Assembly: GCF_044324785.1 (NCBI RefSeq)
Contig: NZ_CP172127.1
Origin: Escherichia coli
GTDB taxonomy: Bacteria; Pseudomonadota; Gammaproteobacteria; Enterobacterales; Enterobacteriaceae
Length of the DNA stretch: 64,000 nt
Strand: one strand, 5' to 3'
Part shown: in pieces, positions 11,601-17,600 of the stretch
Layout of the letters: each line of letters begins with the position of its first letter
Numbering within the stretch: position 1 is the stretch's first letter
Position numbers: made by a program

Positions 11601-14600
11601 GCAGTATGGAGATGCTTCTGCCGATGATCGCGTTACCTTTACTCTCTCCGGAGCTCCGGAATATGTCACCAGAGACACCGGTCAGGCGTAAGCGTACAGC
11701 CTGAACCGTCTGGTCAGAATCTGACGAATTAGACAAAGTGGTGTCCACCAAATAAGTAGTGGGAACCAAAGTGTCAGATATGCAGAAAAATGTGACTCCC
11801 GGCAGGCGAAAAGGCTGCCCTAATTATCCTCCCGAATTTAAACAGCAGCTCGTTGCTGCCTCCTGTGAACCCGGGATATCCATCTCAAAACTTGCTCTTG
11901 AAAATGGCATTAACGCCAATCTGTTGTTCAAATGGCGACAACAATGGCGCGAGGGAAAGCTGCTATTACCTTCTTCAGAGAGCCCCCAGCTACTTCCTGT
12001 GACTCTCGATGCAGCTGCCGAACAGCCAGAATCGCTCGCAGAGGGCCCGGAAACCCTCAGTATCAGCTGTGAGGTAACGTTCCGGCACGGGACGCTCCGC
12101 TTCAATGGCAATGTCAGCGAAAAGCTCCTGACTCTGCTGATACAGGAACTGAAGCGATGATCCCGTTACCTTCCGGGACCAAAATTTGGCTGGTTGCCGG
12201 TATTACCGATATGAGAAATGGCTTCAACGGCCTGGCTGCGAAAGTACAGACGGCGCTGAAAGACGATCCCATGTCCGGCCATGTTTTCATTTTCCGGGGC
12301 CGCAGCGGCAGTCAGGTTAAACTGCTGTGGTCCACCGGTGACGGACTGTGCCTCCTGACCAAACGGCTGGAGCGTGGGCGCTTCGCCTGGCCGTCAGCCC
12401 GTGATGGCAAAGTGTTCCTTACACAGGCGCAGCTGGCGATGCTGCTGGAAGGTATCGACTGGCGACAGCCTAAGCGGCTGCTGACCTCCCTGACCATGCT
12501 GTAAATCTCTTTATCCTGGTTGTCACAGAATAAGCCCGGTAAAATACGGGCTTATGAACGACATCTCTTCTGACGACATCTTCCTGCTGAAACAGCGCCT
12601 GGCCGAACAGGAAGCGCTGATCCACGCCCTGCAGGAAAAGCTGAGCAACCGGGAGCGCGAAATAGACCATCTGCAGGCGCAGCTGGATAAACTCCGCCGG
12701 ATGAACTTCGGCAGTCGTTCCGAAAAAGTCTCCCGCCGTATCGCACACATGGAAGCCGATCTGAACCGGCTTCAGAAAGAGAGCGATACGCTGACTGGTA
12801 GGGTGTATGACCCGGCAGTACAGCGTCCGTTGCGTCAGACCCGCATCCGTAAGCCGTTCCCTGAATCACTACCCCGTGACGAAAAGCGACTGTTGCCTGC
12901 GGCGCCGTGCTGCCCGAACTGCGGCGGTTCACTGAGCTATCTGGGTGAGGATACCGCCGAACAGCTGGAGTTGATGCGTAGCGCCTTCCGGGTTATCCGG
13001 ACGGTACGGGAAAAACATGCCTGTACTCAGTGCGATGCCATCGTGCAGGCACCTGCACCTTCGCGGCCCATCGAGCGGGGTATCGCCGGACCGGAGCTGC
13101 TGGCCCGCGTGCTGACCTCGAAGTATGCAGAGCACACCCCGCTGTATCGCCAGTCAGAAATATACGGCCGGCAAGGTGTGGAGCTGAGCCGTTCACTGCT
13201 GTCGGGCTGGGTGGATGCATGCTGCCGGCTGCTGTCTCCGCTGGAAGAGGCGCTTCATGGCTATGTCATGACTGACGGCAAACTCCATGCCGATGATACC
13301 CCGGTCCAGGTACTGCTGCCGGGTAATAAGAAGACGAAGACCGGGCGGTTGTGGGCGTATGTTCGTGATGACCGCAATGCCGGGTCAGCGTTGGCACCTG
13401 CAGTGTGGTTCGCTTACAGCCCGGACAGAAAAGGCATCCATCCGCAGACTCATCTTGCTTGCTTCAGCGGTGTGCTGCAAGCGGATGCGTACGCCGGGTT
13501 CAACGAGCTGTATCGCAATGGTGGGATAACGGAAGCTGCCTGCTGGGCTCATGCCCGCCGAAAGATCCACGATGTGCACGTCCGCATCCCGTCAGCACTG
13601 ACGGAAGAAGCCCTGGAGCAGATCGGTCAGTTGTACGCCATAGAGGCGGATATAAGGGGAATGCCGGCAGAGCAGCGGCTTGCTGAACGTCAGCGAAAAA
13701 CGAAACCGCTGTTGAAATCCCTGGAAAGCTGGTTGCGTGAAAAGATGAAGACCCTGTCGCGACACTCAGAGTTGGCGAAGGCGTTCGCGTACGCACTTAA
13801 CCAGTGGCCGGCACTGACGTACTATGCGAACGATGGCTGGGTGGAAATCGACAACAACATCGCTGAAAATGCCCTGCGGGCGGTAAGTCTGGGTCGTAAA
13901 AACTTCCTGTTCTTCGGCTCTGGCCATGGTGGTGAGCGGGGAGCGCTACTGTACAGCCTGATAGGGACGTGCAAACTGAATGACGTGGATCCAGAAAGCT
14001 ACCTTCGCCATGTGCTTGGCGTCATAGCAGACTGGCCGGTCAACCGGGTCAGCGAACTGCTTCCGTGGCGCATAGCACTGCCAGCTGAATAACACATCCC
14101 CGTCAATACGGCCCTCGCTGTACGCTTACTAATCCGCCGTGAATATAAATCAACAACGAGTGCGAGATAACACCATTTGTCCTGCAGGCGAATAAAACTG
14201 ATGTTGCCGCACCAGACGCGGTTTGGTGCGGCGGGGTGAAATTGCCGGTTCAGTAAATTTGGCAATGGCGGACTTTTGTCTTCGTTTACCCGGTAGTGAT
14301 GTTTAACTGGCTGTCGACTTGTCAGCCCGCATTCCCGCATCAGTCGTCGTGCCAGCCACCGGCCTGCATCAACGCCACTATGGCGCAACATCTGACTGAT
14401 TGCCCGGCTACCGACTGCGCCACGACTGAGAGCATGGACAGCCCTCACCCGACTTCGTAATTCAATTCTTTGCACATTAACAGGACGCTTCACCTGCGCG
14501 TAATAAATGCTACGGTGAATACCGAATAAATGACAAAGAACCCGCACTGGCCACTTTGCTTTCAGCCGTGTGATTAGCGCGACAGTTTCCCCGGGGATTT

Positions 14601-17600
14601 CGCTCATCAGCACGGCAGCCTGCTTTAGTATTTCTTTTTCCATCTCAGGGCGCTTTATCTGCGCTTTAAGCTGCTTAATTTAGCGTTGTTCAGGAGTAAT
14701 AGCATTACCAGCGGGCTCAATACCCTGAAGTTCCTGCTTATACAACTGTATCCATTTACGCAAATGGTCAGGGTTGAGCTCGAGTGCCAGCGCGACTTCT
14801 CTGACATCACGCTGGTATTTAACCACCTGTTCGATAGCTTCAAGCTTGAACTCCGGGGAAAAGGTACGTTTAGTCCGACGAGTTTTGATCATGCATCACC
14901 TCATTTTCACTTTTTAACATTAACAGTGAAAATGAGGTGTCCTGAATTACCGATCCACTACACAGAGAGTGACCAAAGGATAACGTGTCCTGAGTTTCCC
15001 TATTATAGAGAACTGTTCAGGGAGTCTGACATCAAGAGTGCAGTAGCCTTTTTAATATTTCATTCTCCATTTCAATGCGTTGTAGCTTTTTCCTCAGCTC
15101 ACGTATTTCGATTTGTTCTGGTGTCATCGGAGAGGCTTTTAGTGTTTTGCCCTGACGCTCATCACGCAGTTGTTTGACCCATCTTGTCATTGTGGAAAGG
15201 CCGATATCCATAGCTTTGGCGGCATCTGCCACCGTATAGTTCTGGTCAACAACCAGTTGGGCGGATTAGCGTTTAAACTCTGCGCTAAAATTTCTTTTTT
15301 TCATTAGGGCACCAGTCTTGTTCTGAGGTGAGCATATCACCTCTGTTCAGGTGACCAAATTCAGTGTGCCATTTCAGTCTGTAATGCGCTGTGTGAAAAA
15401 GCTCACTGACAGTCTGAGTATTTGTCTGCAAAGGATGGAGGCCCGTCGAGGGTTCCTGAAAACCACTGGTGTGCTGGCGAATAAGCTGACAAGAATCATC
15501 TGGCGTGTTTTGAGCGATAGTATTGATTTTAATATGCAGAAGGCCGTTGTGATGAATTAAATAAAAACAGTAAGTTATAGAAAATATTTTTAACTGAGTT
15601 TACATTCACTGATGAGATAACGGCTACCGCCCCTGTAACAGTCTGAAGTTGACCTGGGTAATCAAATACCGGTGTAGTGATTAGGAAACAGGGCCCGGAT
15701 AACATCATGGCGCAGGTCATTGAACCTACTAACGACGCCGGATATATGGTCGCAAACCGCATCGAACCAGTACTTGCCTCATCTGGGACGTCCATATATG
15801 CTCAACAAAAGAGAGCGTTCAGAATCCTAGCCTCACATCATACCTGAAACCGCGTCCCGACCATAGATGATTTTATCGCCGGTTTTTTATGACAATTGTT
15901 ATATTTCCGTAACAATCTTTCCGTAGACTCACGTGCATAAAAATGATTCCCCTTGAAATCGATTTTTTGAAAGGAAACCGCAATGGGCAGACCGTTAAAA
16001 ACTTTATTCAAACGTGAGCATAGTGAAGAAATCAGTAACCCGAGCGATAACCGCGCGTTTTCGCAGGTGGCGGAAGTTTATTTGTCACGCCGCCGTCTGT
16101 TACAGGCCGGCACGGTCGCCGGTGCCGCGGCAGCGTTCCCATTTCTGCTGAAACAGGAAAACGCGCTGGCGAAAGTGGTCTCCAAAGCAAGCGGTAACCT
16201 CGGCAAAGCGACGACGCTCGGTTTCACCAGCCTGCCGGTTTCCACGGAAGATACCGTTATCGTGCCGGAAGGATACATCGCGAAGCCCTTCTACAAATGG
16301 GGCGACGCCACCGGGATTGCCGGAAATCTGCCGGTTTTTAAAACCGACGGTAGCAACACCACGGAAGAACAGGCGGCGCAGGCCGGGATGCACCACGACG
16401 GCATGGCGTGGTTTAGCCTGCCGCAGGGCGGGAACAGCTCCGATCACGGCCTGCTTGCCATAAACCATGAATACATCGATAACGGTCTACTGTTTAAAGA
16501 TGGCGATGCCAACTGGAGCGCCGATAAAGCTCTTAAAGGCCAGAACGCGATGGGCGTGTCGGTCATTGAAGTAAAAAAAGTGCCCCTGGGCTGGGAAGTG
16601 GTGCGCCCGTCATCGTTCGCACGCCGCATCACCGTTAACACGCCGATGAAAATCACCGGTCCGGCGCTGCATAACCCACTGATGCAAACAGTTGACGATC
16701 CGAAAGGCGAAATCATTCTCGGCACCATGCAGAACTGTGCCAACGGATTTACGCCGTGGGGCACCTATCTGACGTGTGAAGAGAACTGGTCCGATATTTT
16801 CGTAAAAAAAGCAGAGATGAACCCGCTGGAAAAACGTTACGGTATCAGCGGGAGCGACGACTCTTACCGCTGGAACGAAGTGGATAAAAGGTTCAGCGTC
16901 GACGCCACGCCGAACGAGCCGAACCGCTTCGGCTGGGTGGTGGAAATCGATCCATACGATCCGCATTCAGTGCCGCGCAAGCACACCGCGCTTGGTCGCA
17001 TCAAACACGAAGGCGCGGCGGTGACAATTGCCCCGGATAACCGCGTTGTGGTCTATATGGGCGATGACCAGAAATTCGAATACATATATAAATTTGTCTC
17101 GGAAGGAAAATTCAACCCGCAGGATCGCAAAGCCAACATGCACCTGCTGGAAAAAGGCACTCTGTACGTGGCGAAATTTAACGACGACGGCAAAGGCGAG
17201 TGGCTACCGCTGGTGTTCGGACAAAATGGGCTCGACGCCAGTAAAGGGTTTGAAAACCAGGGCGACCTGTTGATTAAAACCCGTCTGGCGGCAGACGCCG
17301 TGGGGGCCACTAAAATGGACCGCCCGGAGTGGATTGCGGTCGATCCATATCACGCCGGCAGCGTTTACTGCACGCTCACCAACAACAGCGATCGCGGTAC
17401 GGAAGGAAAAGCGCCAGTGGATGCGGCCAACCCGCGCGCCAAAAACGTTTACGGCCACATCATTCACTGGCTGGAGCATAACGGCGACCCGACCGCGCTG
17501 CAGTTTGCCTGGGATATTCTTGTGATGGGCGGTCGCACCGATACGGACAAACCGGAAACCAAAGGCAGCATGAAGGGTGCGGAATTCGGCAGCGCCGATG

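Follow-up and report, generated by a model that had tools for sequence, protein, structure and literature searches.

One intact ISEc8 and three nested insertion-sequence remnants at a module boundary in an Escherichia coli genomic island

The lack of a target-site duplication around an insertion sequence (IS) usually results from recombination between IS copies or from an adjacent deletion, and such deletions are often small at first and grow later (PMC11708052). A described example of an IS left without target duplications in these ways is IS150 in the Lenski long-term experiment (PMC11708052). In the present work, we examine a similar situation around ISEc8, an element of the IS66 family, for which the classic gene organisation is tnpA-tnpB-tnpC (PMC12888890). 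The copy in question lies at 11688-14129 of a stretch of 64,000 nucleotides from E. coli (GCF_044324785.1, contig NZ_CP172127.1; the whole analysed stretch is called the window), between an internal fragment of cdiA and the remnants of three other ISs. As with IS150, a single element has mismatched flanks, and the parallel to IS-adjacent deletion extends to the finding that small losses flush with ISEc8 (37 bp, 113 bp) occur beside large flank replacements; unlike IS150, the element belongs to the IS66 family. We will show that the cluster is of an ordinary kind, with one intact IS and three dead ones stacked at a module boundary of a genomic island. It is probably a dead-end stack, built by ordered insertions and reduced by stepwise losses, in which both flanks of ISEc8 changed after the element had inserted.

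ISEc8 spans 2442 bp on the plus strand and consists of a left inverted repeat (IRL), three open reading frames (ORFs) and a right inverted repeat (IRR). The ORFs, tnpA (11780-12160, 126 aa), tnpB (12157-12504, 115 aa) and tnpC (12554-14092, 512 aa), are all on the plus strand and of full length. Their NCBIfam scores are 95.9 bits for NF047595 (cut-off 74), 120 for NF033819 (cut-off 50) and 456 for NF033517 (cut-off 180), and Pfam finds DDE_Tnp_IS66, zf-IS66 and LZ_Tnp_IS66 in them. Membership of the IS66 family is judged on TnpA, TnpB and the DDE transposase TnpC, and all three are present. The terminal repeats, GTAAGCGTACAGC, begin with GTAAGCG and match perfectly at 13 of 13 positions and partially thereafter. 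In length, terminal repeats and gene order the element agrees with ISEc8 as annotated by the Prokaryotic Genome Annotation Pipeline (PGAP), and it is 99.7% identical over 2442 bp to many copies bearing that label. Full-length copies occur in 3,334 of the 5,426 complete E. coli genomes that made up our survey set. The exact variant, on the other hand, is seen only at this locus, in ES1, ST38 and A65EC; the next-ranked matches listed are 99.6-99.7% identical, and 7 substitutions separate the window copy from the best other copy in each of those records. Judged by its sequence, ISEc8 is the sole element of the cluster that is still apparently functional.

The second difference from annotated ISEc8 copies is the missing 8-bp duplication, which is a mark of simple insertion and not a criterion of IS66-family membership. 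The 8-bp flanks are GGTCAGGC on the left (11680-11687) and TAATCCGC on the right (14130-14137), so that the test for a target-site duplication is negative, and the two 30-bp flanks have no k-mer of 7 or more in common. As a control, nine other ISEc8 copies at eight distinct sites were inspected, and every one has a perfect 8-bp duplication, which makes its absence here meaningful. The initial annotation of the window, made by reading the sequence, had described an intact IS66 element with both inverted repeats and no target duplication, and this description holds. A target preference of the form N7C was also considered, as C is the last base of the four duplications inspected first and of all four orphan flanks, but it was rejected because five further sites end in A, G, C, G and A.

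Immediately to the right of ISEc8 lies the remnant of an unnamed IS3-family element, which PGAP labels merely 'IS3 family transposase'. By alignment to full-length copies, it occupies 14130-14962 on the minus strand and comprises positions 1-836 of approximately 1258 bp; the full-length relatives, in VR50 and strain 1105, are ~1258 bp long and ~95% identical. Its orfA (14892-14680, minus strand) has a TAA at codon 71. Of its orfB only the N-terminal part is left (14643-14130, minus strand), cut just past the first D of the DDE motif, and this cut is flush with the right end of ISEc8 at element position 836, as had been read initially. Pfam detects HTH_Tnp_1, HTH_21 and the start of rve, the domains expected of the IS3 family, while NF033516 scores 141 bits, under its cut-off of 160, because the gene is truncated. 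Terminal repeats of the form TG... are also expected of the family; the IRL of the element, TGTAGTGGATCGG... (TGTAGTGG...), places its outer end at 14962 and not near 14940. A 1-nt insertion (CCCCGGGG vs CCCCGGG, within 14560-14600, minus strand) fuses orfA and orfB in frame. Both this insertion and the TAA at codon 71 are common to all strains that have the block described below, and these lesions thus predate the IS66-family insertions. Artificial orfAB fusions in IS3-family elements have been reported to raise the rates of adjacent deletion (PMC11708052).

The next layer is an IS911-like remnant at 14963-15376 on the minus strand (positions 1-414 of ~1250), with the outer end of its IRL at 15376 and cut within orfB by the IRL of the IS3-family element. 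Over these 414 bp it can be aligned with IS911, from the IRL through orfA into the beginning of orfB. It differs from IS911 by its truncation at position 414 and by a premature stop: orfA begins with an ATG at 15304 and, in agreement with the initial reading of a TAA after 12 codons, codon 13 (15268-15266) is TAA where IS911 has GAA. ISs are assigned to the same isoform in ISfinder at a nucleotide identity of about 95% or more. With 93.5-94% identity to copies labelled 'IS911 family', the remnant stays below this level and is designated IS911-like. A 1-nt deletion in its slippery run was considered as a further lesion and rejected, as PGAP-annotated IS911 has the identical TTAAAAAGG.

A third remnant had been overlooked. 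At 15378-15560 on the plus strand lie 60 codons, cut by the IRL of the IS911-like element, that are probably the C-terminal end of a transposase gene of the IS110 family. This family is characterised by a transposase with an N-terminal DEDD domain and a Transposase_20 domain. Pfam returned nothing meaningful for the short peptide or for the neighbouring ORFs, and the protein database holds short fragments only; the assignment is made from the database, where 'IS110 family transposase, partial' is the name of an identical protein of 61 aa and PF02371 is present in a relative of 101 aa. The cluster, first delimited at 11688-15300, therefore reaches at least 15560 and has four IS layers rather than three. 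Throughout the stack, only the part next to the IRL is left of each remnant, and the cut coincides exactly with the outer end of the following element; 14130-15560 is better annotated as three nested IS remnants.

We now turn to the comparison among related islands, which had been proposed together with the initial annotation. The block of IS3-family, IS911-like and IS110-family remnants followed by phoX is present in 41 of the 5,426 genomes, and the strains differ exactly at the ends of ISEc8, with four different left flanks. In the B771 type (10 genomes), both halves of the IS3-family element are there: positions 1257->987, ISEc8, and then 874->1, with 113 bp gone flush with the left end of ISEc8 and with no duplication. 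In the EcE type, a nest of IS66-like ends precedes ISEc8, which is followed by IS3-family positions 874->1, that is, 37 bp more than in the window. GF60 has the same right side (874->1, with the 37 bp), and to the left of its ISEc8 lies the 13-kb module of the window, ending in the cdiA fragment, in this case in a pheU island. ES1, ST38 and A65EC represent the window type, with the cdiA fragment, ISEc8 and IS3-family positions 836->1. In I2, finally, the cdiA fragment is followed by a hybrid IS66 element and an IS256 remnant; the first 1.4 kb of the hybrid are those of the window ISEc8 and the remainder comes from another IS66-family element. The additional 37 bp are absent only in ES1, ST38 and A65EC; they are genuine orfB sequence, so that the window, which lacks them, shows the derived state. 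No microhomology was found at this 37-bp deletion. As a side observation, a solitary 26-bp sequence, TGTACTGACTCCAAAAAGTTGGACAG, lies beside the IS3-family IRR in B771 (5700-5731 of the extracted locus); it resembles the terminal repeat of the IS150 group (e.g. IS1397) and is probably an IS scar.

Two chimeric queries were used to search for the reciprocal products of a rearrangement, one joining the right end of ISEc8 to GGTCAGGC and downstream cdiA, the other joining the distal part of the IS3-family element through AACTCAGC to the left end of ISEc8. Neither was found at a query coverage of at least 80% in any of the 5,426 genomes, which argues that, within this collection, the missing halves have been lost and not inverted elsewhere. 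A single deletion behind all truncations was considered and rejected, because in B771 the distal part is still present for the IS3-family element and missing for the IS911-like one; there must thus have been at least two separate losses before those specific to the window. Repeated transposition and deletion, as initially proposed, is accordingly what the locus calls for: there are neither duplications nor complete partner halves, and several insertions together with several losses flush with IS ends are needed.

Divergence between the window and GF60 amounts to 0.04-0.14% to the left of ISEc8, 0.29% inside the element, 0.35-1% to its right and 2.9% farther on, with a jump at the left end of ISEc8. 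By four single-nucleotide polymorphisms within its left 1.3 kb, the ISEc8 of the window falls together with that of I2, and the GF60 copy with that of EcE. These sequence data fit an old resident ISEc8 whose divergence went along with that of its right flank. Lineages would then have exchanged the left module by way of ISEc8 homology.

From the nesting and the strain differences, we infer the following order of events. An IS911-like element would first have inserted into an IS110-family element beside phoX, the unnamed IS3-family element then into orfB of the IS911-like element, and ISEc8 into orfB of the IS3-family element. All inner (left-hand) halves would next have disappeared stepwise, every loss ending flush with an IS. 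The left flank of ISEc8 would have been exchanged for the 13-kb Klebsiella-like sugar-utilisation module that ends in the cdiA fragment, and in the ES1/A65EC lineage the 37 bp of IS3-family orfB beside the right end would have been deleted. ISEc8 would lack a target duplication because both flanks changed after the original insertion. For the individual junctions two routes may be envisaged: ISEc8 could have driven an adjacent deletion by intramolecular transposition, or a second ISEc8 copy could have inserted and then undergone homologous recombination with the first. ISEc8 may also have served as the portable homology that carried the left module between the pheU and selC islands.

Several points weigh against this history. 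The data do not separate adjacent deletion from second insertion plus recombination, and we know of no experimental demonstration of adjacent deletion for the IS66 family. A simple ancestral insertion of ISEc8 in the IS3-family element was not found in the survey set, which covers complete E. coli genomes only, so that this first step is a reconstruction. There is, in addition, a second locus in GF60 (7033-13637 of the extracted sequence) with a paralogous IS3-family-IS911'-IS110' block. Its IS3-family copy is otherwise complete and is interrupted by ISCro1, another IS66-family element, which has an intact 8-bp duplication, CGATAATC, and is itself interrupted by an IS21-family element. Its duplication is further evidence that the lack of one at the ISEc8 of the window is meaningful. 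At the same time, ISCro1 sits only 3 bp from the position of the right ISEc8 junction in the window. It may mark a hot spot for the IS66 family, and if this region is a preferred target, the right junction of the window could have come from an independent insertion instead of a 37-bp deletion.

In that scenario the right junction (ISEc8 / TAATCCGC) would stem from a separate ISEc8 insertion into the hot spot in the IS3-family orfB, with the left half later replaced by recombination with a unit of cdiA fragment and ISEc8. Three IS66-family junctions do fall within 46 bp of this orfB (829-836, 833-840 and 867-874), and one of them is the independent ISCro1 insertion with its duplication intact. 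Against this, no identical copy of the window ISEc8 exists elsewhere, and its divergence from the GF60 copy is near that of the adjoining DNA. Together with the 7 substitutions relative to the best copies in the next-ranked records listed, this matching divergence fits an old resident copy, orthologous to the copies with the additional 37 bp. An independent insertion also requires one extra event, and we regard it as unlikely.

That the truncations are IS-independent illegitimate deletions which happen to lie next to ISs is very improbable: the 5' junction of cdiA is truly of this kind, with an 8-bp microhomology and no IS, but across the strains at least five different junctions coincide, to the base, with an end of ISEc8, and the 37-bp deletion shows no microhomology. 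IS copies are classic sites of misassembly, but an assembly artefact through repeat collapse has a negligible probability, since four complete-genome records share the 8-kb arrangement with an identity of 99.7-100% (they come from England, Mexico and Switzerland, and one is of unstated origin; ES1 and ST38 among them are near-identical) and the left junction recurs in a fifth genome.

Returning to the history of ordered insertions and stepwise losses, one may ask whether ISEc8 itself, and not generic recombination, made the base-exact 37-bp and 113-bp deletions and the flank exchanges, and whether a stretch of ~170 bp of the IS3-family orfB is a preferred IS66-family target. We put this forward tentatively, as a possibility that is more doubtful than not. 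If it were true, the locus would be a natural record of intramolecular transposition by a poorly characterised family, and ISEc8 would be the vehicle by which a Klebsiella-like module of 13 kb passed from one to the other of the pheU and selC islands. The locus otherwise matters little beyond bookkeeping. RefSeq already contains the elements in this arrangement, with pseudogene and transposase annotations, and the biology is known. The locus adds another case in which an IS has been both a breakpoint and a source of portable homology in a mosaic island, and the repeated flush junctions at an IS66-family element offer a mildly useful lead on possible adjacent deletion in this family.

The fragment of cdiA to the left of ISEc8 occupies 9621-11687 on the plus strand and corresponds, by alignment to strain N1, to nucleotides ~2630-4694 of a 9711-nt gene. 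It is 98.2% identical at the nucleotide level to annotated intact cdiA genes and has matches to the Fil_haemagg (Pfam) and TIGR01731 repeats. Of the features that define CdiA it has the repeat region alone; the TPS domain and the toxin tip are both missing, and the annotation of the island contains neither cdiB nor cdiI. On this sequence evidence it is a gene fragment and not a functional member of the CdiA family. Strain N1 carries a complete cdiBAI in a related island. Of the loss of surrounding island genes that the initial annotation had likewise ascribed to the ISs, the comparison with N1 shows the part that concerns cdiA beyond nucleotide 4694 and cdiI only.

The initial annotation had attributed the truncation of cdiA to IS activity, and this is correct for one of its two ends. 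At the 3' end the gene halts at the IRL of ISEc8, whose GTAA supplies the stop codon, and ISEc8 accounts for this truncation; the locus in this way explains the non-functional fragment in the island. The 5' end, on the other hand, is not adjoined by an IS in the window. It is joined there to a ybgA/DUF3833 segment through an 8-bp microhomology, GAGCCAGA (9621-9628, in the region 9564-9628). This segment is 96-97% identical to Klebsiella plasmids; in one of them, pKPN-262, an IS903-like terminal repeat begins 2 bp past the point of the cdiA junction, and the homology of the other Klebsiella matches listed also breaks off at that base.

The 14-bp perfect inverted repeat at the start of the IS3-family orfA requires a separate comment, because it had been taken as a sign of rearrangement. 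Its position, 14897-14910 / 14926-14939, is confirmed by direct reading of the sequence; together with a 15-nt loop, the two arms form a leader hairpin at 14897-14939 on the minus strand. The left arm belongs to the inner IRL, and the right arm covers the Shine-Dalgarno sequence, GAGGTG, just upstream of the orfA ATG. Its calculated folding energy is -24.2 kcal/mol, compared with -9.5 ± 2.4 kcal/mol for shuffled sequences (z = -6; 0 of 500 shuffles reach it). Other copies of the element have the same hairpin in an imperfect form, and their full 93-nt leaders fold at -17 to -23 kcal/mol, compared with -30 kcal/mol here. In IS10 and IS50, the left end and the ribosome-binding site reportedly pair in a hairpin that sequesters the translation-initiation signals, according to the 1998 review by Mahillon and Chandler. 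The IS3-family hairpin resembles these in that an arm in the inner IRL pairs with a Shine-Dalgarno arm and in that it is conserved among copies of the element. It differs in that the stem is perfect in this lineage and the element dead. We read the repeat as the element's own, putative translational-sequestration hairpin rather than as a rearrangement scar. Clustered changes from GAAATCC to ATTTTCAC turn the left arm into the exact complement of the right one, which suggests a template-switch "quasipalindrome correction".

As to the setting, the window matches the E. coli ES1 chromosome (NZ_CP133856.1) with 100% identity across 8 kb, and the same holds for the near-identical ST38 record. According to the PGAP annotation, positions 1 to ~25,100 of the window are a genomic island at tRNA-Sec (~25.0-25.1 kb) with an integrase at ~23.5-24.7 kb, and the remainder beyond the island, from yicJ/yicI through waaO, is core chromosome. 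No further copies of any element of the cluster were found within the 64-kb window. A scan of 14100-16000 for promoters and terminators gave 4 sites where 2.5 are expected, none of them in the IS3-family leader, and is uninformative.

The ~13-kb left module (1-11687 in the window, 1618-14688 in the extracted relative loci) encodes a PT-DNA restriction endonuclease, an HNH protein, GH43, MFS, xylA, a porin, ybgA and DUF3833, followed by the cdiA fragment. It is 99.9% identical in GF60 (pheU island), in ES1 and A65EC (selC islands) and in strain I2. Its left boundary lies beyond the window. In GF60 a fragment of a DUF4198 gene adjoins it, and in ES1 and A65EC the adjoining sequence is one that we take to be an IS2 terminal repeat.

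On the other side of the cluster, downstream of phoX, there is a frameshifted fragment at 18058-18801, which PGAP labels 'ABC transporter permease' in ES1 and 'integrase core domain' in A65EC. It is followed by more decayed DNA and then by genes for an outer-membrane protein and a phosphoethanolamine transferase at ~20.2-21.7 kb.

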